Assembly (NCBI GenBank): GCA_009930445.1
Contig: RZYD01000002.1
Span: forward strand, 1 to 41,249
Reading direction: 5' to 3'
Length of the DNA stretch: 41,249 nucleotides
Origin: Bacteroidia bacterium
GTDB taxonomy: Bacteria > Bacteroidota > Bacteroidia > Bacteroidales > BM520
Below the pieces are notes generated by a model that worked only from the letters and a program-made list of their open reading frames with translations, searched no databases and was not told where the DNA came from. Positions 4,889 to 40,179 of this stretch are shown in pieces (positions within the stretch are counted from its first letter, which is position 1; each line of letters opens with the position of its first letter). The position numbers were made by a program, and so were the translations under genes.

Positions 4889-4909
4889 ACGCGTTGTATA
4901 AATTCTATT

Positions 4910-7360: not shown

Positions 7361-7376
7361 ATGTTTCGCATTAATA

Positions 7377-8540: not shown

Positions 8541-8559
8541 CCGTCAATAGTATCAAAGG

Positions 8560-10143: not shown

Positions 10144-10149
10144 ATCCAG

Positions 10150-11895: not shown

Positions 11896-11905
11896 TTTAT
11901 CCGAA

Positions 11906-14900: not shown

Positions 14901-17900
14901 TGCACAGAAAGGGATGAAAAATCATTCCCGTCTAAAATCATTTCTGTAAGATTTCCGGACAGGAATGCGCCAAAGGCACCTCCATTGGATCCTGAAAACC
15001 CTTGAGAGAATCCAAGGAAACGGTTGTTTTGAATGGCAATATAATGTACATCGCCTTCGGTGGTTACTAAATTTAAAGCACCTCCGTTACCATTTCCGGC
15101 ACGACATTCCAAAAATCCATACCCATCCTTTTGATCCTGCACAAGGAGAGAATCAAGTGAAGCTGCAATAATGCTGACTGCGCCGCCATGATCCGCTACA
15201 CAGGAGGAAAACAGGTTAGACGTAACTCTGACGCCATGGGTAATATCACCCGAAATCAAAGAAAAAGCCCCGCCGGCACTTGAATCGCCGGAAGAGAAAC
15301 AATCAGTAAAGCTATTACGGGAAACAATAGCCCCCTGCTGTAAAGATGCATCCGGAAGGTCGATACAAATACCACCACCATGCATCACAGAGGAAACCTC
15401 CGTAAACTCATTATCCTCAATACGGATCGAACCATTTACCGGCAGACCAGCATGCAAATACACACCTCCTCCGTTGGCACCTGAAAAACAATCTGTCAGT
15501 TGCGCACCTGCTAATGTGAAGCCTTCGAAGGCATGATCGAAACTAAAATGCAGTGCACCACCGGAACCTGTAACCGACCTACAATTTTGAAACATGGGCA
15601 ACCCAGTGCTTCCAGATAGCTCAATTTGTTTTAAAGTCTTGGTTTTCAACGACATAGCACCCCCGTCACCCTTTGCATTGCAGTTTTGAAACTGGGTCAT
15701 AACCATGGAAAAATCGCCGTCAACAACGCCTGCCTGGAGATAGATGGCTCCCCCTTCTCCTTCGCAGGCTTCGGTAGCTGAAAACTGATTATTATTCAAG
15801 TTTATTCCCCCCATCAAATTGCCGTTGTGTAACTCAATCATTAATGCACCGCCATGTTGCTGAGCCTTGGTTCCATGAAACCTATTATTCGTTATATGCA
15901 ATGACGACAAAAGGCCTCCTGGTGCCTCCAGAAATAAACCACCACCATGCTCTCCGGCAGAAACTGGAGCCGTTTCATTTCCCAGAAAAGTATTTGAATC
16001 AAGGATCAGACTGGATAATGGCCCTGATTGCGCGACTCCATAAACAGCTCCTCCTGAACCATCAACAGAACGACAATTATCAAATGTATTACGGGTGAAC
16101 CCAATAGATTGCAATCCCTGACCTTCGCTACAAACCAGATAAACTGCGCCACCATCAGAGGTGGCTGTCAAATTCTTAAAAATATTGGTATCAGCAACAA
16201 AATCACCGTGAATAGCAGTAACACCGGAGAAAGACAACGCACCACCGTTTCCCCCGGAATTATGCAGATTTACTCCTCCGTCGAACGTATTTCCACGCAC
16301 GATGATATCCCCGTTGATCACCCCGTTTAACGACACTGCCATTGCACCTCCTTCGCTGTTCCGGGCCGAGCAATTCAAAAATCCCGGGGCATTGTCGGTA
16401 ATCTGGACGGTGGTCATACGTTGAGCGGACAAATATACTGCACCCCCTGATGCGCCAGCACTGCAAGTATTAAAATAATCATTTTTAAAAATAATCGGAT
16501 GAAAAAATTCCGCTGCCTTCAGCGTCACTGCACCTCCCGATGCTGCATCGTTCATTGCTTTGCAAAATTCAAAGCTACAACTGCTTACCAACAAACTATC
16601 CAAAACATTATGCGCATGAAAATCCATATAAATAGTGCCACCATCCATTTCCGCCGACCAGTTCCTGCAATTCAGCCCGGAAAGTTCCAGGGGAAAAGTC
16701 AAATTCCCATTGGAGGAGATATAAAATAATCCTCCGGATTCCTGCGCGTTAAGCATATCATTTCCACCATCGGCAAGGATATCCCGGAATTGTATTCGCG
16801 CTAATCCTTCCTGCCAGGAGGAGAGATAAATACCTCCGCCGGAGCCTTGCAGCGCTGCACACCGCTGAAAACCAGCTTCTCCATCTCCGTTTACCAACAG
16901 GGAGTGGATGTACCCGGCAGAAAGAAACACCGCCCCTCCATCGTTAGTAGCAGAACAATCAGAAAAAGTCGTGTTCAGTAGAGTCACGGTATCGGAAATC
17001 GCTGTACTTTGAAAGAACAGGGCTCCTCCAGAACCATTCGTGATGCTGCGGCAATGCGAAAAACCATTATTTTTTATGCGTATACCCCTATGCAAAGAAC
17101 CTTCCTGATTATTCACATAGAGAAAACCGCCATTTAATGCAGAATTGAGATGATCACAAGTATTGTCATCCACTACAAAAAGCTCCGAAAAATCGTCACC
17201 CGTTTCAAGAAAAACACCTCCACCATTCCCCCCTGAATGACAGTAAGAAAAGCTATTGGATTTAATCTCTACCTTACCAATAGCCTGCGGTACCTGAAGA
17301 TAAATTGCTCCACCGTCGGATGCAGAAGACAGGTAACTAAAAGTATTGTTTTCCATCAGGAATTCTCCAGCAGAATGACAAATCAGGGTAAAGGCACCTC
17401 CGTATTGAGGTTGTGGACCAACGGATTCTTCGGTATTCTGCCAGTAATTATTAACCAAACGAATTGAACCTGCATCACCCACAGAGTGAATGGCGATGAA
17501 CCCCCCGTGATTATGGGCAGTAAAATCAGAAAGGGTATTATCATGAAAATTAAAAATGGCAGGGCCTTCCTGCACATCTAAAAACAAAAAACCACCCGAT
17601 TGCGCTTCATTTTGCTGAGTGTTAGTGGTTGAAAAACCATGAAATTCCAGCGTGCCAATGGCTCCAGAAGAGATCAGGGAAAGAAATCCACCATCACCGT
17701 AGTGGCTTGAAGCCAGGCCCAGTGTATCGTTTTCGAACCGGAGAGAAGAAAGCGGTGTACCTTCTCCTGAAATCTGTATATGTGCCATCCCTCCATTTCC
17801 CGGAGCATAACAGGAATCAAATGTACACCCGGAAAACAGGATGGAATCAGGGCTGTTTAAAGTGTAGAGTGCAAGAAATCCGCCAGTATGGTCCTCCGGA

Positions 17901-19384
17901 TTCCGGCTATCTCCTGATACAACAGCCTTATCAACCAGATCATCAGTGAAATTCAAATGAGAAATGCCTGCACAATTGATAAAAAATGCTCCTCCAGAAG
18001 TTACTGATTCCGAATGGTAGATATTGCCATGCGATTCCAATTCCTGCATGGCTCCACCGATTTCAACACTTATAAGTCCGCCATAAGCTAAGGTTATCTG
18101 ATGAGAAAACACATTTTGCTGAAGATGCATAGCCCCAACAACACCGGCATCCGCATCCAAACGCAAGAAACTACCCGGATCCCGTGCCGTATTGTGAAGA
18201 ATTGTATTCCCTGAAAGCAAAATACTATCCAGGGTAAAAAACTCCGTTAGAAAAAAGATATTCCCCACATTCCCGGAATACTCAGAATCCACAACTGAAA
18301 GCCCATACTGACCTGGAATACAGTAATATAAAGAAGTAAAATTTGCTCCCGCCTCTTTTAAATCAATCCCTTCAATGGTATCATTATGAACAATAATCGC
18401 ATCACTTTCGATGGAAAATAAATACTTAAAAGCCAAATTTACCGATGAAGATATCGTGTTTTCCGACAGCGTAACCTGGTCACAATGGGTAAGGTAAAGC
18501 ACCCGGCCTGAATTCACAACTTGGTTACGGGAAAAGGAAAACGCTTCCAATGCAGTATTTCCGTGAATAGCGACAAAATGTGGTTCATTGGTTATTGACT
18601 GCACCGAATGAATCAGGTTATCCGTTACAGCGATTGTGGTAAGCACAGGATTCTCTGTTAAAGAAAGGAAAGAAACCGGTAGGTAAGAATTTGTGATTTG
18701 ATTTCCAGTAAACTGAAAGGAGGCAAGCTGGGTAATAGAGGCCGCAAGACCTCCCTGACAATTTTCGAAGGTGTTTGCTTCGACTATTAAATCAGATATT
18801 GAAAAATTTTGGTAGAGATTAATGGTATAACCCGCAACCGTATGAAAAGAACAGGAGGCTATACGCAAATTGGTTTCCGGACAACCTGATTGCAAAACAA
18901 TTCCATTGGAATTGATATTTTCAAAATGACAGAAGGTGATATCTTCTATCCCATTATTTACCGAAACCGCTGCGCCGGCTTCTTCAGCAATATCTTTTAT
19001 CGTCAGGTAACGCAATACTGAAGTACGGGCATTCCTTTTTGCATTAAAAAGCCGGATGCCGTTCCAATACGTAGATTGTTGTTCCGGAGAGGAGAGCACA
19101 ATTTGTTGTTCAGGCTCACCCGCTGCCAGAAAGACACCCGCCACATCCATTCGTTTGCCTGAAAAAAACTGCACCTGAGTTCCGGGCATCAGTTGCAGGG
19201 TATCTTCATCAGCTACCGTTATATTAACAGTAACTATATAGAGTGTATCCGCATACCACTTACCGGAAACGTTGGGCGTATTGATATATATTGTATCATT
19301 TACAATGGAGGATAATACTACGGCAGATTTTAATACCAGAAAGATAAAAAGAAGAAAGGTGTGCCTGAAAAACACTTTTTTCAT
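11906..19384 (-). CDS. Giant T9SS-secreted parallel-beta-helix adhesin-like protein with polymorphic-membrane-protein (Pmp) type repeats
   Basis: The ORF is 2492 aa with the signal peptide 'MKKVFFRHTFLLFIFLVLKSAVVLS'. It has dozens of 'F(S/T/Q)xC xx xxx GGA(I/V/L/F)(Y/F/S)' units, such as 'FSDCSATNDGGAVFL', 'FQNCNAKGDGGAMSL', 'FSDCRASNRGGAFSF' and 'FNSCNAGFNGGALYV'. The C-terminal T9SS sorting domain reads 'VNIFPNPANDLLTIAH...GGYMVVVISENGKTAQLIIKE' (about nt 11909-12145). Confidence 0.85.
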   Translation of the reverse strand: MKKVFFRHTFLLFIFLVLKSAVVLSSIVNDTIYINTPNVSGKWYADTLYIVTVNITVADEDTLQLMPGTQVQFFSGKRMDVAGVFLAAGEPEQQIVLSSPEQQSTYWNGIRLFNAKRNARTSVLRYLTIKDIAEEAGAAVSVNNGIEDITFCHFENINSNGIVLQSGCPETNLRIASCSFHTVAGYTINLYQNFSISDLIVEANTFENCQGGLAASITQLASFQFTGNQITNSYLPVSFLSLTENPVLTTIAVTDNLIHSVQSITNEPHFVAIHGNTALEAFSFSRNQVVNSGRVLYLTHCDQVTLSENTISSSVNLAFKYLFSIESDAIIVHNDTIEGIDLKEAGANFTSLYYCIPGQYGLSVVDSEYSGNVGNIFFLTEFFTLDSILLSGNTILHNTARDPGSFLRLDADAGVVGAMHLQQNVFSHQITLAYGGLISVEIGGAMQELESHGNIYHSESVTSGGAFFINCAGISHLNFTDDLVDKAVVSGDSRNPEDHTGGFLALYTLNSPDSILFSGCTFDSCYAPGNGGMAHIQISGEGTPLSSLRFENDTLGLASSHYGDGGFLSLISSGAIGTLEFHGFSTTNTQQNEAQSGGFLFLDVQEGPAIFNFHDNTLSDFTAHNHGGFIAIHSVGDAGSIRLVNNYWQNTEESVGPQPQYGGAFTLICHSAGEFLMENNTFSYLSSASDGGAIYLQVPQAIGKVEIKSNSFSYCHSGGNGGGVFLETGDDFSELFVVDDNTCDHLNSALNGGFLYVNNQEGSLHRGIRIKNNGFSHCRSITNGSGGALFFQSTAISDTVTLLNTTFSDCSATNDGGAVFLSAGYIHSLLVNGDGEAGFQRCAALQGSGGGIYLSSWQEGLARIQFRDILADGGNDMLNAQESGGLFYISSNGNLTFPLELSGLNCRNWSAEMDGGTIYMDFHAHNVLDSLLVSSCSFEFCKAMNDAASGGAVTLKAAEFFHPIIFKNDYFNTCSAGASGGAVYLSAQRMTTVQITDNAPGFLNCSARNSEGGAMAVSLNGVINGDIIVRGNTFDGGVNLHNSGGNGGALSFSGVTAIHGDFVADTNIFKNLTATSDGGAVYLVCSEGQGLQSIGFTRNTFDNCRSVDGSGGAVYGVAQSGPLSSLILDSNTFLGNETAPVSAGEHGGGLFLEAPGGLLSSLHITNNRFHGTKAQQHGGALMIELHNGNLMGGINLNNNQFSATEACEGEGGAIYLQAGVVDGDFSMVMTQFQNCNAKGDGGAMSLKTKTLKQIELSGSTGLPMFQNCRSVTGSGGALHFSFDHAFEGFTLAGAQLTDCFSGANGGGVYLHAGLPVNGSIRIEDNEFTEVSSVMHGGGICIDLPDASLQQGAIVSRNSFTDCFSSGDSSAGGAFSLISGDITHGVRVTSNLFSSCVADHGGAVSIIAASLDSLLVQDQKDGYGFLECRAGNGNGGALNLVTTEGDVHYIAIQNNRFLGFSQGFSGSNGGAFGAFLSGNLTEMILDGNDFSSLSVQSRGGALSITVPVTGRTASIVSTQNIFSDCRASNRGGAFSFSGGAFEEFFVHDCSFENVVVTQGNGGAISLEGNPGRIDFVDNSFYGCYAGFLNPELEGHGGSLYINASEGLNSETYMLRNTFDASDNFSALGGAVYTDHVFEINVNNCQFNRLSVTGNGGAFFTTEAGIVTMQNSSFNSCNAGFNGGALYVVNSGGLGLLALDEVVFENNRAGLTGGAVSSSGFLEVAIGHTRFFQNAVENTIDADFGGGALFVSDVLHAHVFATRFFDNYAENFLPGASSRGGGLYFNSCENVSLQNNEIRFNRASIGGGVCIIDDIKSMISGNQFILNAAINGGAVFADSYFSDIDSLILSDNHFIRNSMGYRGGGLFSGHNNTCLFRNIFIRNFGISSSSGVRGSSVYLSPLVNNAAIYNSVFDRNEDDDQRLADNATVFLDASGTTTANRLRLEMGNCTFLNNWPYAAHAIYNKREEDSVLVYNSIFQGNLLQNDSLFNTSSVITRFCRLEGRLFEGAHEAVLTPFPYLLENGTYKLLPESFFIDQGDSTLAYDDYAFPPGQGTLVNDAGHTGGPHNSFCSTCLIKPESWTYNDSLVVVRTDCNQYHISFYHSQATEFDHFAWYIDGMKYTTEENSLSLEYAVERNTQLLAVASQSGDEAIMVGRAWIYNLEIVHDGLSVAYQPDGHGISDPAKDADVVISYANDCLENITIKGTLNGLKIPDISSYQYQWFFTASEGISGIDLNPLDEDECWVTFTIDKAFYMSDQLNALLFYSGEDQCGLKCSDTLKIHFIPEGFLPLEVTAVTPENGSSVVYNQFISIALSLNQEPGYHHNGTYEILPQHEDLSHLNLFELREEETLVPMDSVFLRLQDGVWFFELFPDTSRITYDRVYTLQLSDNLITKCGWSPEPFSYAVNTVRTGNTAYELKVNIFPNPANDLLTIAHQQITSGVLKVYNFTGECLVSTPLSPNGKTRVFLSGWPSGGYMVVVISENGKTAQLIIKE
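13690..17950 (-). repeat. Protein-level array of roughly three dozen GGA/FxxN (Pmp-type) beta-helix repeats within the giant CDS
   Basis: I counted about 38 GG[AG][ILVFM]-type motifs between roughly aa 480 and 1900. The boundaries are approximate. The repeats are diverged at the DNA level, so this is not a tandem DNA repeat. Confidence 0.7.
14791..14799 (-). repeat. C9 homopolymer (G9 on the coding strand) inside the giant adhesin CDS
   Basis: Counted directly: 'aaaatg ccccccccc t'. It encodes the residues R-G-G-A of 'ASNRGGAFSF', about codon 1529. Confidence 0.95.
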
Positions 19385-30100: not shown

Positions 30101-31297
30101 ATGGAATCAATAAAAACCATTTTCAAAATCGGATATGGGCCCTCAAGCAGCCATACCATGGGACCCGGAAGGGCAGCGCAGCATTTCAAAGAGCAAACGG
30201 AAGCATCGGCATACGAAGTCACTTTATACGGATCACTGGCGGCTACAGGCAAGGGGCATCTCACCGATGAGGCCATCGAAAGGGTTTTGGGAGCTGAAAG
30301 GACTACAATCCACTGGCATCCGGAAATTTTCCTGCAGCAGCACCCCAACGCACTCAGGCTGGATGCCCTCAACCCTGACGGAAGCCTGATCACTTCGGAA
30401 ACCTGGTATAGTACAGGAGGTGGGGAAATCACAATGACTCCCGGGAGAAAAAACGTAAACTCCATTTACGGACTGCATACAATGAATGATATATTACAAT
30501 GGTGCCAGAAGAAGGGGAAAAACATCTGGGAGTATGTAGGCGAACGGGAGGATGCGGATATCTGGCAGTATTTGGATGGGGTATGGGCGGTAATGAAGCA
30601 GGCAGTAAAAAACGGGCTCGATCACGAAAGCAGGCTTCCAGGGCCGCTAAACGTAGCCAGAAAAGCCTCATCGTATTTCACAAAAGCACAGTCGCAGAGT
30701 ACGCAATACCAAATCAGGACCCAACTTTTCGCTTATGCCCTGGCGGTTGCAGAAGAAAATGCATCAGGGGGCAAAATTGTAACAGCACCCACCTGCGGTT
30801 CGTGTGGCGTTGTGCCGGCCGTATTTTATCTTTTGGAAGACATTCATCATTTCAATAAAAAAAGAATTTTACATGCCTTGGCCACTGCAGGGTTAATTGG
30901 CAATTTAATCCGCTTTAATGCATCGATATCAGGAGCAGAGGTAGGTTGTCAGGGAGAAATCGGAACCGCTTGTGCCATGGCGGCTGGAGCAGCAACGCAG
31001 CTCTTTGGCGGCACACCGGCTCAGGTAGAATACGCTGCGGAAATGGGGCTTGAACATCATTTAGGGCTCACGTGCGACCCGGTGATGGGCCTGGTGCAGA
31101 TTCCGTGTATTGAAAGAAACGCTTTCGCTGCAGCCCGAGCACTGGACGCCAAAGAATATGCACTCCTTTCCGATGGTATTCACCGCGTAAGTTTCGACCG
31201 CGTAGTGGAAGTAATGAAAGAAACCGGGCATGATATCCCGGCGCTGTATCGGGAAACAGGATTAGGCGGACTGGCAAAAAAACAAAAACCGTCTTGA
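30101..31297 (+). CDS. sdaA: L-serine ammonia-lyase (iron-sulfur dependent, single chain)
   Basis: The ORF is 398 aa. It shows 'FKIGYGPSSSHTMGPGRAA', 'TAPTCGSCGV' and 'GCQGEIGTACAMAA'. Confidence 0.9.
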   Translation: MESIKTIFKIGYGPSSSHTMGPGRAAQHFKEQTEASAYEVTLYGSLAATGKGHLTDEAIERVLGAERTTIHWHPEIFLQQHPNALRLDALNPDGSLITSETWYSTGGGEITMTPGRKNVNSIYGLHTMNDILQWCQKKGKNIWEYVGEREDADIWQYLDGVWAVMKQAVKNGLDHESRLPGPLNVARKASSYFTKAQSQSTQYQIRTQLFAYALAVAEENASGGKIVTAPTCGSCGVVPAVFYLLEDIHHFNKKRILHALATAGLIGNLIRFNASISGAEVGCQGEIGTACAMAAGAATQLFGGTPAQVEYAAEMGLEHHLGLTCDPVMGLVQIPCIERNAFAAARALDAKEYALLSDGIHRVSFDRVVEVMKETGHDIPALYRETGLGGLAKKQKPS

Positions 31298-31350
31298 AAA
31301 ACTAATTTCAAAACGGCCTCAAGTGTATGAATATGTGGAATGTAATGGTT

Positions 31351-32109
31351 CTATTGTTCTAGTTTTTCGAGGATTTTTTCGGCATCGGCTTTATAAAATC
31401 CGTCTTCTTCATTGGCAATACGCAAGAGTTGAATCCGGGCCTCACTGGTTTTTTCCTGTTTTAGATAACACAAAGCCAGGTACCATTCAGCATGTTCAAC
31501 ATAAAGGTTGTCGTTATTTTCAATAATATAGTTAAAAGCCTCAATGGCTTTATCGTATTTTTCAGTTTCAATATACGATATGCCGCTATAAAAACGCAAT
31601 GCAATATTATCTGACTCTTTCGCCAGAATTTGTTCAAACATTTGTGATGCGGCTTCAAATTCTTTTTTCTGGAATTTCATCAGGGCTTCCACGATATTTA
31701 CATTTCCTCTTCCCGACCGGTTAACAATCAATGCTTTATCGGGTTGATAATACATTTTAAACAACTTATCCGCTGTATAGGAACGAGGTGTAAGTGTTAG
31801 CACTCCGGCGGTAATCAGTACACCCATTCCGGCTGCGGCTGCCACATATTTCAGATTCGAACGCATCAGTTCAATCACGGGCGACAACGGGATTGTTTTC
31901 CGGTTTGAGCGATGCAGTGCGTCGAGTTTATGTTTAAGATCCAGAATATCTTCTTCCTGGAGCACTGAGGTCAATTCCTGCTCAAGGGCAATTTCCTTAA
32001 ACAGGGAATTGTCTTTCACCAAAAGGGACTCAAACTGCTTCATTTCCTTTGCTGTCATCACACCTTTTAAGTACCGCTCTAATTGTTCCTGAATGTTATT
32101 TTTCTTCAT
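31351..32109 (-). CDS. Anti-sigma factor-like membrane protein with a C-terminal (periplasmic) TPR domain
   Basis: The ORF is 252 aa. Its start overlaps the sigma-gene stop by 14 nt, which suggests translational coupling. The N-terminus 'LERYLKGVMTAKEMKQFE' is typical of Bacteroidota anti-sigma N-termini. There is one TM, 'YVAAAAGMGVLITAGVLTL', followed by TPR-like repeats ('YSGISYIETEKYDKAIEAFNYII', 'WYLALCYLKQEKTSEA'). Confidence 0.7.
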   Translation of the reverse strand: MKKNNIQEQLERYLKGVMTAKEMKQFESLLVKDNSLFKEIALEQELTSVLQEEDILDLKHKLDALHRSNRKTIPLSPVIELMRSNLKYVAAAAGMGVLITAGVLTLTPRSYTADKLFKMYYQPDKALIVNRSGRGNVNIVEALMKFQKKEFEAASQMFEQILAKESDNIALRFYSGISYIETEKYDKAIEAFNYIIENNDNLYVEHAEWYLALCYLKQEKTSEARIQLLRIANEEDGFYKADAEKILEKLEQ

Positions 32110-32698
32110 CGTCTGCTAATGCTTTATATAAGGGGTCGTTTTTTATTCGTGCTTTTAATAATTCCTTGCATTGATATTTGCGTGCTTTTGCGTAATCGTC
32201 GCTTTTGTATTGCATTTGTTCTGCGATTTCATTCACATTGAACCCCTGGGCAAACAGTTCAAGAATCCGTTGACAATCGGGAGATAGCGAACTAAAATGA
32301 CGAAGATAAATTCGTTTCCGCTCTTCCGAAGGCTCAACGATTTCATAATCAATATCTGCAGACAGATTGGCGTATTCTTCGGTATCGTTGATCCGGATAG
32401 TAGTCCACTGTCGTTTATTTAATCGCTGCAGCCAAAGATTTCGGCACACGCTGTAAAAGAACGTTTTAAATGAGCAGCTTAATTTAAGTTCTTCATTTCT
32501 GATTCGCTTATAAATAATAATCATTGCATCCTGAAATAAATCTTCCGCATCTTCGTCCGTTCCGGAATTTCTATTGACTAAATTGATAATACAATCAATA
32601 TAATTTCGATAAATTGCGGAAATGATCACATTTCTCCGTTGTCTGAGCCCCTCAATATAATCCTGATCACTATAAATTTCTTTTGCTCTCTTATTCAT
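32096..32698 (-). CDS. ECF-type RNA polymerase sigma-70 family factor
   Basis: The ORF is 200 aa. The region 2-like segment reads 'DAEDLFQDAMIIIYKRI...FKTFFYSVCRNLWLQRL'. The region 4 HTH reads 'LSPDCQRILELFAQGFNVNEIAEQMQY'. Confidence 0.85.
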   Translation of the reverse strand: MNKRAKEIYSDQDYIEGLRQRRNVIISAIYRNYIDCIINLVNRNSGTDEDAEDLFQDAMIIIYKRIRNEELKLSCSFKTFFYSVCRNLWLQRLNKRQWTTIRINDTEEYANLSADIDYEIVEPSEERKRIYLRHFSSLSPDCQRILELFAQGFNVNEIAEQMQYKSDDYAKARKYQCKELLKARIKNDPLYKALADDEEK

Positions 32699-32722
32699 CC
32701 GATTTTATTCAAAAGGTAATAC
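32696..32722 (-). repeat. Left arm of a 27-bp imperfect inverted repeat; it overlaps the sigma start codon
   Basis: The minus strand reads 'GTATTACCTTTTGAATAAAATCGGATG'. It matches the plus strand at 32876-32902 at 23 of 27 positions by my manual alignment. Confidence 0.7.
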
Positions 32723-32830
32723 AAAAAAAATGATTTTTTTTAATAAAAATGCTAACAAAAACCATAATCGACTATAAGTCAGAGAAATACTCCGGCTCCC
32801 GTTTTTTTATAAAGCGTTAAGATAAAACAT

Positions 32831-32838
32831 TATCTTTG
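32831..32838 (+). promoter_or_regulatory. Candidate -7 box (TATCTTTG) for the T9SS cohesin/dockerin gene
   Basis: It matches TAnnTTTG and lies 135 nt upstream of the ATG at 32973. The palindrome at 32871-32887 sits between this box and the ATG. Confidence 0.4.
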
Positions 32839-32870
32839 GCTTAAAGGATTTTTTAAAAAAAAATGTCCTC

Positions 32871-32887
32871 AAAAGGTATTACCTTTT
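32871..32887. promoter_or_regulatory. Perfect 17-bp palindrome AAAAGGTA-T-TACCTTTT, a candidate operator
   Basis: Read directly from the sequence: 8-bp arms around a single central base. Its half-site recurs at 32711-32722. Confidence 0.45.
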
Positions 32888-32902
32888 AAAAAAAAACGGA
32901 TT
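32876..32902 (+). repeat. Right arm of the 27-bp imperfect inverted repeat
   Basis: The plus strand reads 'GTATTACCTTTTAAAAAAAAACGGATT'. It pairs with the 32696-32722 feature. Confidence 0.7.
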
Positions 32903-32972
32903 AAAGGTACAGACATTGTTAAGGTCTCAAACCACAATGTTTTGCGATGTTAAAAATATAAAAAAATACAAA

Positions 32973-34229
32973 ATGAAAAAACTGTACACTTTATTAACCT
33001 CATCTCTCCTTGTTGCAATAACATTTTTATCCCTGTCCGTATCCGCACAAAATACTTTTTACGGCAATATTTTCTATCACGGTGATCCTACCCAACCCAT
33101 ACCGGGTATTACAGTAAGTATGTCCAACCCGGATTTTTCGTTCACGGCGGAAGTGATAACGGATCAGGATGGATTTTTTACAATCAACAATATCCCCGCC
33201 GGAACTTTCACCGTTACCGCTGAAACCACCCTTTCTGCCGGAGGAATTGATCTGGCGGATGCCTATCTGGTCATGCTCCATCTTTTCAACCTCCTATCCC
33301 TCGATGACTACCAGGCTGCCGCGGCTGATGTGAATGCCAACGGGTTTATCGACTGGGGTGATTACTGGGATATCCTCATTGGCTGGATTATGTACAGCAA
33401 TCCCTTCCAAAATGATGAATGGCTATTTGATACACAAGAAATTACATTCCAGCCGGTTAAAGATGGCGGAACTACCATAGGCAGTGAACTGGGAGCCACT
33501 TGTACCGGGGATATAAACGGCACCTGGATTCCCGACGAAAAATCATCCGGAACGTACCTCCTCAATAATGAAACCGTTACAATTTTTCCGGGAGAAACCC
33601 GTGATATTACATTTACCGCCTCCAATACCCTTACCGTTGCCGGGCTGTATATTGGCATTCAATATAACCCTGCCGTACTAACAATTCAGGGCTATGAAAC
33701 CACGCCGGAAGCCATGGAATACAACACCATTGAAACACCGGGGCTGCTTGGCTTTCACTGGATGACTAACCCGCAGATGGAACTGCTCACGCTGAAAAAA
33801 AACGACCCGGTGATCACCCTCACCGTTACGGTTGCTGAAAATGCAACGCCTCAAACCATTACTTTTACCCTCGACGAGGAATCTAACTATATCAGCGCTT
33901 CGGGTAAAACACTAAAAAGCAACCCGCTTTTTGCACAATCACTGGAAGTACTAAAAAATGAAAATACAACCACGATCAATGAAACCAGCGACAGGGTTTC
34001 TCTCTATCCCAATCCCGCATCGGAATACTTAATTGTTGGGACACATAACCTAAACCAGAAAATTGTTATTCATGACATGACCGGAAAAACAGTATGTGAT
34101 GCCTCCCTGACAACACTACAAACGCGGTTAAACGTAAGCAGTTTTAAGCCGGGCTACTACTTTTATCAGATTATTAATAAGGATGACGGAACGATCGATC
34201 ATTCAGGGAAATTAGCCGTTACCCGATAA
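32973..34229 (+). CDS. T9SS-secreted protein with CarboxypepD_reg-like, dockerin-like and cohesin-like modules
   Basis: I moved the start to the ATG at 32973, giving 'MKKLYTLLTSSLLVAITFLSLSVSAQ'. 'GITVSMSNPDFSFTAEVITDQDGFFTINNIPAGTFTV' is CarboxypepD_reg-like. 'AAADVNANGFIDWGDY' is a dockerin/EF-hand-type Ca loop. 'VAGLYIGIQYNPAVLTIQGYE' is cohesin-like. The T9SS tail reads 'VSLYPNPASEYLIV...GYYFYQIIN...GKLAVTR'. Confidence 0.7.
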   Translation: MKKLYTLLTSSLLVAITFLSLSVSAQNTFYGNIFYHGDPTQPIPGITVSMSNPDFSFTAEVITDQDGFFTINNIPAGTFTVTAETTLSAGGIDLADAYLVMLHLFNLLSLDDYQAAAADVNANGFIDWGDYWDILIGWIMYSNPFQNDEWLFDTQEITFQPVKDGGTTIGSELGATCTGDINGTWIPDEKSSGTYLLNNETVTIFPGETRDITFTASNTLTVAGLYIGIQYNPAVLTIQGYETTPEAMEYNTIETPGLLGFHWMTNPQMELLTLKKNDPVITLTVTVAENATPQTITFTLDEESNYISASGKTLKSNPLFAQSLEVLKNENTTTINETSDRVSLYPNPASEYLIVGTHNLNQKIVIHDMTGKTVCDASLTTLQTRLNVSSFKPGYYFYQIINKDDGTIDHSGKLAVTR

Positions 34230-34280
34230 GCTGCTGTGGACAACAGCAATACATCGGTGTAACACCCTTTACAATAAAAA

Positions 34281-34315
34281 AGGTTGTCAGAATTACTGGC
34301 GACCTTTTTCTTTTT
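34281..34315 (+). terminator. Rho-independent terminator after the T9SS cargo gene
   Basis: A 10-bp stem forms between 'aggttgtcag' and 'ctggcgacct' (two G-U pairs), with the loop 'aatta', followed by 'ttttcttttt'. Confidence 0.7.
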
Positions 34316-34347
34316 GCTTAACCCACAGCCGGTAAAGGAATTATTCC

Positions 34348-34355
34348 TATTTTTG
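34348..34355 (+). promoter_or_regulatory. Candidate -7 box (TATTTTTG) for the TPR-CHAT gene
   Basis: It matches TAnnTTTG and lies 40 nt upstream of the ATG at 34395. Confidence 0.5.
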
Positions 34356-34394
34356 TGTACGTAGGTTAGAGGTATGCAAGTGCTTTAGGTAATA

Positions 34395-37300
34395 ATGAAC
34401 AATCAACCCTTTTTCTTTATTCTCAGAAAACTAGTATTGATAGGAATCTTGTGGATAGGGCAAATAGCCGTTGCACAGGATAACATCAGTACCTATAATA
34501 TTCAGCAGCAAAGGAATTACGGACTTTCATATTTGAATCAGGATGATTTTGATCAGGCCTTTGTTGTTTATTCTCAGATGAAGAATTACGCCGAACAAAA
34601 CCACGATGAGGCATTACTTTTCGAAGCAAAGGCGGGTAAAACAATCGCAGCCTACCTGAACCAGGATCTTGAATTAGCCGATTCGCTGCAGCGTTGTACA
34701 TTAAAAGGAAGACACGCACCCCAACCCGGAAACGAAAACGCGTTGGCCTCGCTACATTATGTAAGGGCCGGGCTGGCGATAAAAAACAAAGCCTATACGG
34801 AAACCCTGCAACATTGTGACTCGGCGTTGTTTCTGGCCATAAACGCGGCAACACCCGACACCTCCCTCCTGGGAAGAATTTATAATCTTAGAGGTTTATG
34901 CTATTTTCGCCTCACGCAACATGAAAAGGCGCTTAATGACTATATAAACGCAAAAAAAACTGTCGCACAATTTTCAGTACTTAACCCGCTTCATAATGTA
35001 AAATACACACAAAACATAGCCATGGTTTATGCTTCGCAGCAAGATTACGACCAGGCCATCCCCTATTTTGATGAAACGCTGGCATTAAAACAGAAATACA
35101 AGCTACCACCAAGCCGAAGTGATATTAGTTACAACAACAATCTTGGAAGGGTATTTTTCAGCCGGAATGAATACGAAAGGGCTTCAAAACACTTTAACGA
35201 AGCCATCCGGATCACAATTACGCTATACGGCCCCGACCACGAATTACTTGGAGATGTATATCTGAATCAGGGCAATCTATATACACAAATTGCCGATTAC
35301 CCCAAAGCCCGCGAGTATTACAAAAAGGCGCTGACGCTGATCCGAAAATACCGTGGCCCAGGCGACCCTGCCTTCCGGATTCTGAATAATAATATTGCCT
35401 ACACCTATCAACGGCAGGAAGAAAACAGAACCGCGATCGGGTACTACAAAACCGCTATTCATGAAACCGATACCGACCTTAATACTTTAATTGCACTTCG
35501 AAATACGGGCCAGTGCTATTTCGGGATCAACAATACGGATAGTGCCGCGTATTATTTCAGGAAAGCAGTGGAACTTGCAGAGAGCCAACAGGAAGAGTTA
35601 CCGGAAGAATATGCACTTGCACTTCAGGATTACGGCCAGTTCCTTTTAGAGACCAATCAGCAGCAGGAAGGAATCCGGCTTCTCTTTAACAGCCTCACAC
35701 TCTTCACTGATAATAATACGGTTAACCGGAACAATGAAGCCTATATTCATTCTCTTTTAGGAAGCTACTATTCACGACACGACTCAACGCTTCCAACCGC
35801 GCTCCATCACTTTCAAAAAGCGCTTATCGCACAAGAAGAATCCTTTGAATCAATAAATTATAGAGATAACCCTGATATTCTTGAAACTGAATTACCCTAC
35901 GAATTACTGGGCATTCTGGCGAAAAAAGCAAATGTATTATATCAGCATTACAAGGTAACTAACGACCCGGAGTACCTGAACGCTGCTTCATCGGCCTATT
36001 CACTTTCCATAGCCTTAATCGACCGGCTCAAAAAAACCTATCGATACGACGAAAGCAAACTCTTTATTTCCGGGCAAAGCAACACCATCTTTCAACAGGC
36101 ATTACGGGTTGCGCATGATTTGTATACGCTTACCGGAAACGACACCAACCGTGAAAAAGCTTTTTATTATGCCGAAAAAACGAAATACTCCACTCTTCTC
36201 GAGGCTTACCGGGAGAACCTCCTAAGAAAAAATACCATCCCGGAAACCCTTTCAGAAAAACAGGCTACCTTACAAAAGTCACTCGAAAAAAATACAAGAA
36301 ATCTTTATATTTATCGACAAAATACAACGGTTGACCAAGAGATTATCGACAAATACAATGCAACAATTTTTGATCTAAACCGAACCATCGACCATTTAAA
36401 CGATTCGATCCGCACCAACTTTCCTGAATACTATTATGCCAACAGTTCACTCGCTGTAATTTCGATTGCCGACATTCAAAAAAAACTCCGGCGTAATCAG
36501 GTTCTTATGGAATACAGCCTGCAGGACTCCCTGCTCTTTATCTTTTTTATCAGTCAAAAAGAATTTCATCATACCATGGAAGTAATTGTTCCTGAATATA
36601 TTGATTCACTGCGACAATCCGTTATCTCCGCTGAATTGGGAAACTACACAGGAAAAGAATATACCCGTTTTATTCATGCTTCGCACTACCTGTATACCAA
36701 ATTCATCGCGCCATTCCATGATAAACTAAAAAATAAATCCATCATTCTGATTCCGGATTCCAAAGCAGGGTATATCCCATTCGACGCATTGATTACCACA
36801 AAACCAACCGCCGGGCGCATGGATTACCGGAATCTGAGCTACCTGATTAACACAAATACCATAAGTTACTCCTATTCATCGACGCTGCTATTTGAAAAAG
36901 AAACTAAACCCATATCTTTAAAAAAAATAAGGCTTCTTGCCTTTGCCCCCGATTATACACTGCTTCAAAATACACCGGTCAAGGATACCCTTCTGCATAC
37001 CCTTATGCCAATTCCCGGTGCCAGGGAGGAGGTCGAAGGAATTTGTACCCTATACAACTGCGTTGCCCTAACCGAAGAAATGGCTACGGAACACAACTTT
37101 AAACAAAAAGCACCAGATTATGATATTCTACATCTGGCCATGCATACGCTCATTGACGAAGAAAATCCAGCCTATTCAAGGATTATTTTTTCTCCCACAA
37201 AACAGGATTCCACCAGCGACGGCCTTCTATTTACCAGTGAGCTTTTCACCTTGTCGCTGAATGCACGAATGGCTGTTTTAAGTGCTTGTCAAACAGGAGA

Positions 37301-37658
37301 AGGAAAAATAAGGGAAGGGGAAGGAATTCTTTCGCTGGCCAGAGGCTTTTTCTATGCTGGTGTTCCCAGTGTAATCATGACCTTGTGGCCGGTCGACGAT
37401 ATCAGTAGTGCCACCATTATAAACGCGTTTTACCGGCAATTAAAAAAGGGCCACAGAAAAGATAAGGCGCTACGGCAAGCGAAACTCGACTTTCTGGCAG
37501 CCAGCGACCCCGTAAAATCCCATCCAAGGTTTTGGTCAGGATATATCTCCATCGGTGACCAAAACCCTGTGGTTGCCCCACTTTGGGCTATAGGGTATCT
37601 GGCGTTGGCACTGCTTGCTGCGGGTAGTCTCGGTTGGTTTCTTCTGAGAAAGAAATAA
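34395..37658 (+). CDS. TPR-repeat CHAT-domain (caspase-like) protein with an N-terminal signal sequence and a C-terminal membrane anchor
   Basis: The ORF is 1087 aa. The N-terminus 'FFFILRKLVLIGILWIGQIAVAQD' looks like a signal sequence. It has many TPR_12-like repeats, such as 'LGDVYLNQGNLYTQIADYPKAREYYKKALTLIRK'. The CHAT core runs 'IILIPDSKAGYIPFDAL ... ILHLAMHT ... MAVLSACQTG ... GVPSVIMTLWPVDD ... HPRFWSGYISIGD'. The putative catalytic His codon is at about 37143-37145 and the Cys codon at 37286-37288. The C-terminal TM plus basic tail reads 'LWAIGYLALALLAAGSLGWFLLRKK'. Confidence 0.85.
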   Translation: MNNQPFFFILRKLVLIGILWIGQIAVAQDNISTYNIQQQRNYGLSYLNQDDFDQAFVVYSQMKNYAEQNHDEALLFEAKAGKTIAAYLNQDLELADSLQRCTLKGRHAPQPGNENALASLHYVRAGLAIKNKAYTETLQHCDSALFLAINAATPDTSLLGRIYNLRGLCYFRLTQHEKALNDYINAKKTVAQFSVLNPLHNVKYTQNIAMVYASQQDYDQAIPYFDETLALKQKYKLPPSRSDISYNNNLGRVFFSRNEYERASKHFNEAIRITITLYGPDHELLGDVYLNQGNLYTQIADYPKAREYYKKALTLIRKYRGPGDPAFRILNNNIAYTYQRQEENRTAIGYYKTAIHETDTDLNTLIALRNTGQCYFGINNTDSAAYYFRKAVELAESQQEELPEEYALALQDYGQFLLETNQQQEGIRLLFNSLTLFTDNNTVNRNNEAYIHSLLGSYYSRHDSTLPTALHHFQKALIAQEESFESINYRDNPDILETELPYELLGILAKKANVLYQHYKVTNDPEYLNAASSAYSLSIALIDRLKKTYRYDESKLFISGQSNTIFQQALRVAHDLYTLTGNDTNREKAFYYAEKTKYSTLLEAYRENLLRKNTIPETLSEKQATLQKSLEKNTRNLYIYRQNTTVDQEIIDKYNATIFDLNRTIDHLNDSIRTNFPEYYYANSSLAVISIADIQKKLRRNQVLMEYSLQDSLLFIFFISQKEFHHTMEVIVPEYIDSLRQSVISAELGNYTGKEYTRFIHASHYLYTKFIAPFHDKLKNKSIILIPDSKAGYIPFDALITTKPTAGRMDYRNLSYLINTNTISYSYSSTLLFEKETKPISLKKIRLLAFAPDYTLLQNTPVKDTLLHTLMPIPGAREEVEGICTLYNCVALTEEMATEHNFKQKAPDYDILHLAMHTLIDEENPAYSRIIFSPTKQDSTSDGLLFTSELFTLSLNARMAVLSACQTGEGKIREGEGILSLARGFFYAGVPSVIMTLWPVDDISSATIINAFYRQLKKGHRKDKALRQAKLDFLAASDPVKSHPRFWSGYISIGDQNPVVAPLWAIGYLALALLAAGSLGWFLLRKK

Positions 37659-37699
37659 ATCATTTCTCGGCTGGATTCCGGTGACAAAAATTATTCGTG

Positions 37700-37707
37700 T
37701 ATTTTTG
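37700..37707 (+). promoter_or_regulatory. Candidate -7 box (TATTTTTG) for mutS2
   Basis: It matches TAnnTTTG and sits inside the track ORF's first 13 codons, 13 nt before the in-frame GTG at 37720. Confidence 0.45.
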
Positions 37708-37719
37708 CAGAAAAAAATT

Positions 37720-40179
37720 GTGATTTATCCCGAAAACTTTGAGGTAAAGACCGGATTCGACAAAATCCGCATCATGGTGGAAAACGCCTGTATCAGTGAC
37801 GCCGGAGTTGCCGCCACCCAACGCATGAAAGCTTCTTTCGTGTACGATACCTTACTGCATAAACTTCGGGAAACGGAAGAATTCCGGAAAATTCTTCTGT
37901 TCGGGGAACCTTTCCCCTCACAAGACTATTTTGACCTGACAGACGATTTGACAGCACTTAAGCTGCCAGGAACGTTCCCGGAGGTGGAGATGCTCGGTTT
38001 TTTTAAGGCCTCACTGCTTACTCTGGCGGGGATATCCCATTTTTTTTCATCCGAAGAAAAAAACGAGCGGTTCCCCTTACTCTCCCAATTGAGTAAAAAT
38101 TTATGGGTGGAGCCTGCCATCCTCCCAAAACTTGAAGGGTTAATCGACGAAAAAGGAATAATTCGGTCGAACGCATCAGAAAAACTCAGGGAGATCAGAA
38201 AAAAAATCGAGGGAAAACAAGCCGGAATAGGAAGCCGGATCCATAAAATCCTTGTGCAGGCCCGCCAGCAGGGATGGATAAAAGAAGATACAGAAGTCTC
38301 CATCAGAAATGGAAGGCCGGTTCTTCCTGTTCCCGCAACCCACAAAAGAAGAATTAAAGGATGGATTCATGATCAATCGGCAACCGGGCAGACGGTCTAC
38401 ATTGAGCCAGCAGAAATCTTTGAAATCAATAATGAGATCCGCGAACTCGAGCTCGATGAACGTAGGGAAATCATTCGGATATTGATTGCTTTCGGAGATT
38501 ATATCCGGCCTTATATCACAGGAATCATTCATGCTTACCGCTATTTGGGTGAATTTGATTTTATCCGGGCAAAAGCGAAAGTAGCCCTTGAAACTGCCAG
38601 CACAATGCCCATTCTCAGAAGGCGGCCTGTGATGAATATCCGCAATGCACGACATCCTCTTCTCTACCTTACCCTGAAAAAACAGCAACGTAAAGTCATT
38701 CCGCTCACACTAGAACTCTCTCATAACGAACGCATTCTTGTGATTTCCGGTCCGAATGCCGGCGGAAAATCAATTTGTCTGAAAACCATCGGCCTGCTTC
38801 AATATATGCTTCAATGTGGAATGCTAATTCCGGCCAATGAAAACTCTGAATTTGGAATATTCAGAAATATTCTCATTGATATCGGGGACGAACAATCACT
38901 TGAAAACGACCTGAGTACCTATACTTCCCACCTGCAGAACCTAAAGGTATTCCTTCGCAATGCCGACCGCCACACCCTTTTTTTAATCGATGAATTCGGC
39001 ACCGGAACTGAGCCAAATCTTGGTGGAGCAATCGCCGAATCCACGCTCGAAACACTCAACAACCTTAAAGCCTGGGGCGTGGTAACAACACACTATGCCA
39101 ACCTCAAACTCATGAGTGGAAAACATGAAGGTATTGTGAATGGTGCCATGCTTTTCGACAGCAAGAAGCTACAACCCCTATTTATGCTTCAAACAGGCAA
39201 ACCAGGAAGTTCGTTTGCCTTTGAAATGGCAAGAAAAATTGGGTTCCCGGAAGAAATTCTGGAACTGGCAGGGAAAAAAACAGGAAAAAAACAACTTGAT
39301 TTCGACCAGCAACTCCACCAAATGGAAATCGAAAAAAAAGACCTTACACAAAAACAGACCGAAGTTCAGCTGGCCGATGAATTACTGAAAGAAATTCTTG
39401 AAAAATATAAAACAAAAATCAAACTGCTCGAAGAACAACGAAAAAAGATACTTGAGGAGGCCCAACAAGAAGCCAAACAAATTATTGCCACAGCGAATTC
39501 ACGTATTGAGCATACCATAAAAGAAATCAGGGAAGTACAGGCAGAGAAGGAAAAAACAAAAACCCTGCGCAAAAAGCTAACCGCTGAGGCTGCCCAGAGC
39601 CAAAAAAAACACCACCAGCAATTCATCCGTTTAAAAGAAGAATTAAAAGAAATCACAGTTGAAACCGGGGAAGAAATCCCCGTCCTTTTGCCCAAAGCTG
39701 GGGAAATCTTCAAAAAAGGAGATGCGGTAAAAATCAAAGGGCAAAAAGAATCAGGAGTCATCACCTCCATCCGGGGTAAAAAAGCTACCATTGAGTTTGA
39801 AAATATGCGAATACGTGCCGAACTGGATACCCTGGAAAAAGCCGAGCCACACCAAAAAGGGAGCCGATCGGTCAGGCTTACAACGGCTGCCAGCGGAAAT
39901 ATTATTCACGATCTCACGCTAAAAACCGCCAATTTCAGAATCAGCATTGATGTAAGAGGCCAAAGAGCAGAAGAAGCCCTTTCAACCCTTGAAAAATATA
40001 TTGATGACGCCCTGTTATTGCGCATTCCGGAGATAAAAATCCTGCATGGTAAGGGAAACGGAATACTTCGGGAAGCCATCCGCAATTTTCTAAAATCCAT
40101 GCCGGAAGTACAGAATTATAAAGACGAGGATCTGGAAAGAGGAGGCTCAGGCATCACGACTGTCCGTCTTCGTCTGTAA
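37720..40179 (+). CDS. mutS2: Endonuclease MutS2 (MutS domain V ATPase plus a C-terminal Smr domain)
   Basis: It has Walker A 'ISGPNAGGKS', 'LFLIDEFGTGTEP', a coiled-coil region and the C-terminal Smr 'IDVRGQRAEEAL...LHGKGNGILREAI'. The track start is the GTG at 37681. I prefer the GTG at 37720 ('VIYPENFEVKTGFDKIR'), which agrees with the promoter box. The start remains uncertain. Confidence 0.85.
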   Translation: MIYPENFEVKTGFDKIRIMVENACISDAGVAATQRMKASFVYDTLLHKLRETEEFRKILLFGEPFPSQDYFDLTDDLTALKLPGTFPEVEMLGFFKASLLTLAGISHFFSSEEKNERFPLLSQLSKNLWVEPAILPKLEGLIDEKGIIRSNASEKLREIRKKIEGKQAGIGSRIHKILVQARQQGWIKEDTEVSIRNGRPVLPVPATHKRRIKGWIHDQSATGQTVYIEPAEIFEINNEIRELELDERREIIRILIAFGDYIRPYITGIIHAYRYLGEFDFIRAKAKVALETASTMPILRRRPVMNIRNARHPLLYLTLKKQQRKVIPLTLELSHNERILVISGPNAGGKSICLKTIGLLQYMLQCGMLIPANENSEFGIFRNILIDIGDEQSLENDLSTYTSHLQNLKVFLRNADRHTLFLIDEFGTGTEPNLGGAIAESTLETLNNLKAWGVVTTHYANLKLMSGKHEGIVNGAMLFDSKKLQPLFMLQTGKPGSSFAFEMARKIGFPEEILELAGKKTGKKQLDFDQQLHQMEIEKKDLTQKQTEVQLADELLKEILEKYKTKIKLLEEQRKKILEEAQQEAKQIIATANSRIEHTIKEIREVQAEKEKTKTLRKKLTAEAAQSQKKHHQQFIRLKEELKEITVETGEEIPVLLPKAGEIFKKGDAVKIKGQKESGVITSIRGKKATIEFENMRIRAELDTLEKAEPHQKGSRSVRLTTAASGNIIHDLTLKTANFRISIDVRGQRAEEALSTLEKYIDDALLLRIPEIKILHGKGNGILREAIRNFLKSMPEVQNYKDEDLERGGSGITTVRLRL

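Follow-up and report, generated by a model that had tools for sequence, protein, structure and literature searches.

Four adjacent genes in a 41,249-nucleotide (nt) stretch of a metagenome-assembled Bacteroidales genome (GenBank assembly GCA_009930445.1, contig RZYD01000002.1, positions 1 to 41,249; this whole stretch is the window referred to below) appear to include an envelope signalling unit in which a sigma factor of the extracytoplasmic function (ECF) class quite probably drives the divergent gene for a secreted protein. The set comprises the sigma factor, a single-pass anti-sigma factor that carries tetratricopeptide repeats (TPR), a type IX secretion system (T9SS) cargo protein, and an exported protein that joins a long TPR array to a caspase-like CHAT domain (TPR-CHAT). 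The cargo is assigned as the output of the sigma factor because a motif of fixed spacing is common to the regions upstream of the sigma and cargo genes and lies near background elsewhere. The full model, a sigma switch with the cargo as output and TPR-CHAT as trigger, is given a probability of roughly 0.45; for the trigger, plain inherited synteny with the downstream gene mutS2 is a plausible and serious rival.

In the proposed mechanism, an ECF sigma/anti-sigma unit would control a very small local regulon. The co-translated anti-sigma factor, with its small periplasmic TPR domain, would hold the sigma factor at the inner membrane, and the released sigma factor would transcribe its own operon and the divergent cargo gene from two copies of one motif. 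TPR-CHAT would be expressed from a housekeeping promoter, exported, and tethered to the inner membrane by its C-terminal helix. By analogy with the DdvA protein of Myxococcus xanthus it is hypothesised to act on the anti-sigma factor: on a signal it would, as a constitutive periplasmic sensor and site-1-type protease, cut away the TPR domain and so allow intramembrane cleavage to follow, so that the system would amount to DdvA split into two polypeptides. No site-2 protease gene was found in the window.

A shared motif at the sigma and cargo genes

The intergenic region between the divergent sigma and cargo genes holds two copies of a bipartite motif, GTATTACCTTTT-N10-GGAT(A/T)AA, one directed towards each gene, and the 12-mer has three matches in the window against 0.33 expected. 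When 1.36 Mb of related loci were scanned for the motif, allowing up to 2 mismatches in 15 specified positions, 77 matches fell upstream of sigma genes, 62 upstream of cargo genes, none upstream of TPR-CHAT genes, and about 28 elsewhere; this last group, in which 22 have no listed target gene, is roughly the background expectation. The two halves and the 10-nt spacing are invariant within intergenic sequence that is otherwise unconserved. Their geometry fits an ECF promoter, with a -35 element GTATTAC, a 15-nt spacer and a -10 element GGATAA (GGAT[A/G]A in the sigma copy). From this arrangement we infer that the shared motif is the promoter used by the sigma factor, whose own gene would then be autoregulated. 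An earlier note on this DNA, made from its letters alone, had named the secreted protein as either output or ligand of the switch, and the promoter-like motif common to both genes favours the first option.

The TPR-CHAT gene stands apart from this arrangement, lying 2.3 kb from the anti-sigma gene on the opposite strand and with a different promoter. In nearly every related locus the gap between the cargo and TPR-CHAT genes holds a GC-rich hairpin with a T-run, differing in sequence by clade. The housekeeping -7 promoter box of Bacteroidetes, TAnnTTTG, stands upstream of TPR-CHAT in about 40 of the 48 orthologous loci; its background frequency is 0.04 per 110 nt. Because of the conserved terminator and the gene's own -7 box, TPR-CHAT is read as a separate transcription unit, probably constitutive, outside that of the sigma factor; co-transcription of the cargo and TPR-CHAT genes is rejected on the same two grounds. 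TPR-CHAT is probably co-transcribed with mutS2, which follows on the same strand after a 22-nt gap. Its separate transcription argues against TPR-CHAT as an output of the sigma factor; it agrees equally with a sensor acting upstream and with a housekeeping function unrelated to the switch. The idea that the four genes form one module is thereby divided: the gene set is kept together, and the inclusion of TPR-CHAT in the transcription unit of the sigma factor is not upheld.

Two further features of the motif may be recorded. The cargo-proximal copy sits in a near-perfect 17-nt palindrome, AAAAGGTATTACCTTTT (32871-32887), so that the 12-mer can also be read on the opposite strand with one mismatch, the reverse copy having no GGAT half. 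In three related loci (L057, at about 10790-14950, and L066 and L078, at about 10800) an extra copy with 0-1 mismatch follows directly after the anti-sigma stop codon and precedes genes for an Asparaginase_2 (glycosylasparaginase-like) protein and a GH92 mannosidase, a hint of a regulon related to N-glycans in that clade. The same clade carries two tandem TPR-CHAT paralogues.

The four predicted proteins

All four open reading frames (ORFs) are found in the ORF list where the earlier note had placed them, with small corrections to the cargo start and to one catalytic codon. ECF factors, the group IV sigma-70 proteins, are small and carry sigma2 and sigma4 domains alone. The sigma factor has the features of this class: it is 200 residues long and scores 42.5 bits against Sigma70_r2 (cut-off 24) and 65.1 bits against TIGR02937, sigma70-ECF (cut-off 42.9; residues 28-165). 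Region 4 taken alone was undetected by Pfam at E<0.01, and comparison with the PDB gave a weak SigE match only. The protein reaches no curated NCBIfam subfamily or equivalog, scoring 48 against a cut-off of 126 for Sig70_bacteroi1, 39 against 130 for sigma_PG0214 and 37 against 194 for SigX.

The stop of the sigma gene and the start of the next gene overlap by 14 nt (32096-32109), which fits the translational coupling that had been proposed, and from this overlap together with the topology of the 252-residue product we infer that the latter acts as the anti-sigma factor. It has a single predicted transmembrane (TM) helix at about residues 88-108, with basic residues N-terminal to the hydrophobic segment, a helical and cytoplasmic N-terminus of about 85 residues, and conserved C-terminal repeats predicted to be periplasmic (TPR_16, 34.4 bits; TPR_19, 33.1 bits). 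The juxtamembrane linker is also conserved (...NRSGRGNVNIVEA...), with Arg131 nearly invariant. The N-terminal domain of class I anti-sigma factors is a helical bundle, often with a zinc-binding HxxxCxxC motif. The layout of that class is seen here in the coupled downstream gene, the one TM helix and the extracytoplasmic C-terminal domain; the N-terminus itself contains no cysteine and therefore is not zinc-binding. Weak N-terminal matches were obtained to zf-HC2, in 3 of 14 family members with a lowest E of 0.03, and to RskA_N, in 1 of 14, and a profile search of the PDB returned nothing relevant.

A word-indexed search found homologues of the anti-sigma factor in Bacteroidales/Lentimicrobiaceae genomes only. 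The family is nevertheless large, since a profile search at E<=1e-30 gave 1,258 cluster representatives. Many relatives (P0241-P0244, P0247-P0249 and others) are about 500 residues long and match the 250-residue profile in 3-4 stretches, of which the full-length one falls in the C-terminal half; they look like tandem fusions of two anti-sigma-like units. In locus L064 (10738-18283, minus strand) an orphan anti-sigma-like TPR gene adjoins genes for very large secreted proteins (582, 347 and 1478 residues), and the 582- and 1478-residue proteins end in dockerin-like GLxDSGDMIxxxNNASxF motifs; as judged from these motifs, the locus is a further link between the anti-sigma TPR family and dockerin-type surface proteins.

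For the cargo, the ORF caller gave TTG 32916 as the start, and both a public protein (P0224) and the signal peptide (MKKLYTLL...) favour ATG 32973, which is most likely correct and yields 418 residues. The signal peptide, MKKLYTLLTSSLLVAITFLSLSVSAQ, and a C-terminal sorting domain (Por_Secre_tail, 41.9 bits, cut-off 27; TIGR04183, 43.1 bits, cut-off 23) are those of a T9SS type A cargo. Between them lie, in order, a CarboxypepD_reg-like sandwich (35.7 bits), a two-helix segment with dockerin-like calcium loops, and a cohesin-fold beta-sandwich. Cohesins are nine-stranded jelly-rolls and dockerins consist of two tandem calcium-binding F-hand segments, and of the description of this protein as cohesin/dockerin cargo the first half is the better supported. 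The cohesin module is supported: the Pfam Cohesin score (23.5 bits) falls just below the cut-off of 24.1, five homologues of the cargo carry a precomputed PF00963 match, and the central sandwich of the AlphaFold model (pLDDT 68 overall, moderate confidence; about 80 locally) superposes on type I cohesins in Foldseek with TM scores of 0.70-0.75 and root-mean-square deviations (rmsd) of 3.0-3.4 A, the match to 6kgf_A having TM 0.75 and rmsd 3.0 A over 141 columns. A dockerin module is only suggested, by one complete EF-hand-like loop, DVNANGFIDWGD (DxNxNGxIDxxD), beside one degenerate loop; no Pfam dockerin match was obtained at E<0.01, and the two-helix segment is modelled at pLDDT of about 50.

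TPR-CHAT matches CHAT (PF12770) with 192 bits over residues 764-1055 and many TPR models besides. Its layout consists of a signal peptide (1-28), a TPR/helical array (about 36-700), the CHAT region (about 700-1060) and a TM helix (1063-1086). The catalytic histidine is His917 (LHLAMHT, codon 37143-37145) and the catalytic cysteine Cys965 (VLSACQTG), whose codon is 37287-37289, one base from the 37286-37288 given in the earlier note. Neither residue varies among 48 orthologues, nor in an alignment of 30 sequences that extends down to 18-25% identity. Essentially all orthologues have an N-terminal signal peptide, in many cases with a lipobox-like cysteine, and a C-terminal hydrophobic helix with a basic tail; no internal TM segment was seen in them. 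The TPR array and protease domain are thus predicted to be periplasmic, and with an intact dyad the protein is predicted to be protease-competent and located in the right compartment, the one that would also hold the TPR domain of the anti-sigma factor, as had been supposed. The AlphaFold model (pLDDT 85, pTM 0.73), compared with the PDB by Foldseek, has as its top match DdvA (8rw5, E 1.6e-14, and 8rot), followed by human separase and Csx29. When the PDB was searched by sequence and by profile, with the full protein or alignment A2, TPR proteins alone were returned, the DdvA, separase and Csx29 matches arising only from the fold search.

Possible linkage of TPR-CHAT to the sigma/anti-sigma pair

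A genome scan with the anti-sigma alignment gave 80 loci, onto which the window proteins were mapped. The sigma, anti-sigma, cargo and TPR-CHAT genes occur in the same order and orientation in 48 of the 49 related Bacteroidales/Lentimicrobiaceae loci that have the sigma and cargo genes and enough flanking sequence, at identities to the window of 45-53% for sigma, 39-45% for anti-sigma, 23-30% for cargo and 31-34% for TPR-CHAT. The sigma/anti-sigma pairing is kept in more than 60 loci. It had been set down beforehand that lost synteny, a non-aligning dyad or membership of a well-characterised ECF group would count against the set as a functional unit; synteny is conserved, the dyad aligns, and the sigma factor, compared with NCBIfam models only, falls in no such group. 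Tandem duplications affect the sigma/anti-sigma pair, the cargo and TPR-CHAT. The pair is present in up to three copies beside a single TPR-CHAT gene in L032, L044, L046, L051, L063 and L068, each sigma copy with its own motif, and the cargo is duplicated beside a single TPR-CHAT gene in L034 and L045.

Association outside this clade was examined on the contigs of ten distant TPR-CHAT homologues (21-28% identity) having the same export and anchor architecture. Two of them, L087 and L089 (25-26% identity in TPR-CHAT), contain the same components in other arrangements and with neither mutS2 nor PFOR. In L087 a lipoprotein gene and TPR-CHAT are followed by convergent genes for a 254-residue TPR protein and a 182-residue sigma factor; in L089 a lipoprotein gene and TPR-CHAT are followed by convergent genes for a DUF4382/CarboxypepD_reg lipoprotein, a 251-residue TPR protein and a 199-residue sigma factor. 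Both sigma factors have 27% identity to that of the window, and the TPR protein of L087 can be aligned with the window anti-sigma factor from end to end. In the TPR proteins of both loci the repeats occupy the same C-terminal position. By a rough estimate, a sigma/anti-sigma pair would stand beside TPR-CHAT by chance at about 0.5% of positions. Each of these loci also has its own motif sharing the TTAC core of the main-clade motif. In 16.9 kb of L087, TTTAC[CT]{1,2}TTTT...G(G)A has exactly three matches, before the lipoprotein gene, TPR-CHAT and the sigma gene; in L089, GGTTACAA occurs exactly three times, before the lipoprotein, CarboxypepD_reg and sigma genes. The logic by which a sigma motif marks the sigma gene and a secreted-protein gene beside TPR-CHAT therefore recurs. 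A metagenome scan for the L087 arrangement (with P0011) recovered the same contig and one 78%-identical relative only, too few to be counted as independent evidence. A third distant locus, L086 (Arcicella), has an S8 peptidase gene, TPR-CHAT and an unrelated ECF pair 2.7 kb away.

A mirror-tree test was carried out on 33 non-redundant main-clade loci, with MutS2 distance regressed out, for six gene pairs. Residual covariation was found between anti-sigma and TPR-CHAT (r 0.55, permutation p 0.001), the other pairs giving values of about 0 to 0.15. The signal held under a cubic control and when loci with duplicated pairs were left out, and was strongest with the protease domain of TPR-CHAT. These recurrences and this specific covariation, together with constitutive expression, the shared compartment, the intact dyad and the DdvA precedent, somewhat strengthen the plausible idea of a TPR-CHAT trigger.

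Several observations weigh against the model, beginning at the promoter itself. In the clade of the window the GGATAA half reads GGATGA, and the sigma ATG (32698-32696), the sole canonical in-frame start, lies inside this putative -10 element, unlike a simple promoter. The same placement of the ATG is seen in L001, L002 and L004-L006, the next in-frame methionine being residue 59; in the sister clade the motif is followed 11-17 nt downstream by the sigma ATG. For the window clade one of the two must be mistaken, the sigma start or the promoter reading. There the 12-mer is followed by G (TACCTTTTG), a near-match to the housekeeping -7 box, and the sigma gene may be transcribed differently in this clade. 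The N-terminus of the anti-sigma factor, as described above, only weakly resembles known anti-sigma domains. In the mirror-tree test, covariation with TPR-CHAT was as strong for the cytoplasmic half of the anti-sigma factor as for the periplasmic half, which indicates whole-protein rate covariation with no sign of a periplasmic interface; no periplasm-specific signal emerged when the protein was split by domain. Caution about the method is also called for, since the sigma and anti-sigma factors, presumed direct partners, have no residual covariation across the 33 loci.

The remaining contrary observations concern gene neighbourhood, and they are what would be expected if TPR-CHAT were an unrelated neighbour, the sigma, anti-sigma and cargo genes being self-contained and TPR-CHAT belonging with mutS2 to one housekeeping unit of transcription and acting on other periplasmic substrates. 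On this account adjacency would reflect slow decay of gene order in the order Bacteroidales. The genes mutS2 and yjbR follow TPR-CHAT in every case, as tightly syntenic as the sigma gene, and in most cases PFOR is located a few kb past the anti-sigma gene, the closest relatives being alike in all three; adjacency of TPR-CHAT and the sigma gene taken alone thus proves little. TPR-CHAT distances follow MutS2 distances with r 0.98, and the gene, insulated from the cargo by the terminator, has its own -7 box, has mutS2 close behind it, and in the main clade is never preceded by the sigma-type motif. No sigma gene is near TPR-CHAT in 7 of the 10 distant loci, while paralogous sigma/anti-sigma pairs and orphan anti-sigma-like genes exist with neither TPR-CHAT nor cargo. 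L083 separates the two outright, having cargo, sigma and anti-sigma genes, no TPR-CHAT within 7.7 kb, and unrelated genes in place of TPR-CHAT and mutS2. However, homologous pairs adjoin TPR-CHAT in L087 and L089 in new arrangements lacking mutS2, at the low chance frequency given above; in L087 the local sigma-type motif also precedes TPR-CHAT; the covariation of anti-sigma and TPR-CHAT is specific among the six pairs; and the stretch from anti-sigma to PFOR varies whereas the four-gene core is constant. An unrelated neighbour is judged rather unlikely.

A role for TPR-CHAT on its secreted neighbour, in which it would mature, trim or quality-control T9SS cargo or lipoproteins in the periplasm while the sigma factor sets the amount of cargo, is unlikely. 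It draws on the fact that in most of the ten distant loci the gene immediately upstream of or divergent from TPR-CHAT encodes a protein with a predicted signal peptide or a secretion tag: L085 has a T9SS-tail protein there, L084 a signal-peptide protein with a faint CARDB match, L086 the S8 peptidase, L087 and L089 lipoproteins, and L090 and L091 proteins whose N-termini resemble signal peptides. The cargo comes before TPR-CHAT throughout the main clade, and TPR arrays are typical substrate-docking scaffolds. Yet an all-against-all comparison of the proteins beside the distant TPR-CHAT genes found no common family and no similarity to the window cargo, residual covariation of cargo and TPR-CHAT was absent (about 0.1), and the two genes are transcriptionally insulated and differently regulated.

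An antiviral switch, in which TPR-CHAT and the anti-sigma factor would sense phage and the sigma factor would turn on a defence island, is highly improbable. In its favour are the top structural match, to DdvA, and the control of a CBASS-CRISPR island by DdvA/DdvS (PMC11506125). Against it, no tandem repeat or CRISPR-like arrays were found in the window, and a PADLOC search of five proteins gave no defence family apart from a generic TPR match and, in MutS2, a weak AbiLi-like stretch. The cohesin-fold surface protein is the window's only motif-marked target, and the extra motif-marked genes of one clade encode the Asparaginase_2 protein and the GH92 mannosidase.

For the preferred model of a sigma switch with cargo output and TPR-CHAT trigger, what is new is a concrete putative promoter motif and minimal regulon for an uncharacterised Bacteroidales ECF family, and a link between ECF signalling and a cohesin-fold T9SS surface protein. 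A wider proposal, tentative and held with less conviction than the model, is that exported TPR-CHAT proteins are dedicated, trans-acting site-1 proteases or ligand sensors for the large Bacteroidota family of TPR anti-sigma factors, with DdvA as the fused special case of a widespread form of ECF signalling triggered by caspases, and that here this mechanism would govern how a self-assembling cohesin/dockerin protein is displayed at the surface. The split system offers a one-gene read-out, the cargo promoter, and a sensor separable from the anti-sigma factor; protease and substrate could thus be mutated independently, and the trigger hypothesis is easier to test.

Features of the window and comparison with known systems

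Table 1. Features of the four-gene region and its flanks in the window (nt positions)
Feature	Position	Strand	Basis
Terminator-like hairpin, probable end of the sigma/anti-sigma operon	31285..31320	-	15-pair stem then T-run, just 3' of anti-sigma stop
Single-pass TPR anti-sigma factor, 252 residues	31351..32109	-	TPR matches, topology, 14-nt overlap with sigma
ECF-type sigma factor, 200 residues	32096..32698	-	Sigma70_r2, TIGR02937
Sigma-proximal bipartite motif, putative autoregulated ECF promoter	32697..32722	-	GTATTACCTTTT-N10-GGAT
Cargo-proximal motif copy, about 70 nt 5' of cargo ATG	32876..32904	+	GTATTACCTTTT-N10-GGATTAA
T9SS-secreted cargo, 418 residues	32973..34229	+	Pfam/NCBIfam matches, signal peptide, AlphaFold/Foldseek
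Intrinsic-terminator-like hairpin, cargo/TPR-CHAT gap	34277..34309	+	14-bp stem and T-run
TATTTTTG, match to housekeeping -7 box (TAnnTTTG)	34348..34355	+	39 nt 5' of TPR-CHAT start
Exported, C-terminally anchored TPR-CHAT caspase-like protease, 1087 residues	34395..37658	+	CHAT PF12770, TPRs, topology
MutS2, outside the proposed module	37681..40179	+	MutS_V and Smr by homology in related loci; 22 nt after TPR-CHAT stop

Elsewhere in the window, the AbiLi-like stretch of MutS2 (E 7e-7, residues 312-392) probably reflects generic P-loop similarity. A cluster at 2384-19384 on the minus strand encodes a TssR-like protein (TssR_VWA), a PKD-domain protein, an outer-membrane beta-barrel protein and two T9SS cargos, one of them a giant of 2492 residues with no further Pfam domain. 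TssR is normally tied to the type VI secretion system of Bacteroidetes.

Among known systems, Csx29 of the type III-E CRISPR craspase shares with the window protein the TPR-CHAT architecture and the dyad (target-normalised TM score 0.48-0.52). Craspase is cytoplasmic and bound to Cas7-11, whereas the window protein has export and anchor signals and no cas genes or arrays nearby; a Csx29-type role, already excluded in the earlier note, is ruled out by these signals and by the lack of tandem repeat arrays and of any defence-family match.

The earlier note mentioned comparative surveys that place CHAT proteins beside some ECF groups, and this is correct for actinobacterial ECF54 (PMC8999054), whose neighbours include CHAT, subtilase and carboxypeptidase-domain proteins (PMC8999054 section 3.3, PMC7826278). 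As in the window, the sigma gene is near genes for CHAT and carboxypeptidase-type domain proteins, the counterpart of the latter being CarboxypepD_reg, which occurs in the cargo and also in the neighbour in L089. Proteolytic control of ECF54 has been proposed from gene context alone, and the group is described with no anti-sigma factor, whereas the window, from another phylum, has a coupled TPR anti-sigma factor.

The canonical systems of regulated intramembrane proteolysis of anti-sigma factors, RseA/DegS/RseP and RsiW/PrsW/RasP, resemble the window in having a single-pass anti-sigma factor with an extracytoplasmic domain. They resemble the proposed mechanism in that this domain would need removal, in an autoregulated sigma operon, and in a constitutive, dedicated site-1 protease encoded outside that operon. 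The canonical enzymes are PDZ serine proteases or PrsW-type metalloproteases; the candidate here would be a cysteine protease of caspase fold that carries a long TPR array.

To our knowledge, DdvA is the only TPR-CHAT anti-sigma factor that has been studied. It supplies a mechanistic precedent, where the earlier note knew of no mechanistic description in Bacteroidota: in M. xanthus it is a single-pass, zinc-binding anti-sigma factor whose periplasmic domain is a dimeric TPR-CHAT, removal of which turns the protein into an RseP substrate, and the dyad is proposed to cleave the linker of DdvA itself in a site-1 role (PMC11506125). DdvA-like fusions were found only in Myxococcota and one Comamonas species (PMC11506125). 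If the model is true, a split version across a whole order of Bacteroidota would broaden the idea of caspase-fold gating of ECF sigma release. In both DdvA/DdvS and the window an ECF sigma factor is held by a single-pass anti-sigma factor, there is a periplasmic TPR-CHAT of separase/craspase-type fold with a conserved His/Cys dyad, and a caspase-like site-1 cut followed by RseP-type intramembrane proteolysis is a proposal. DdvA, however, unites anti-sigma domain, TM helix and TPR-CHAT in one polypeptide, whereas the window divides them between two genes: a 252-residue anti-sigma factor with a small TPR domain and no zinc-binding cysteines, and a TPR-CHAT with its own signal peptide, C-terminal anchor and separate promoter. 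The outputs differ as well, DdvA/DdvS controlling a CBASS/CRISPR island and the Bacteroidota system having as its likely local output a T9SS cohesin-fold protein.

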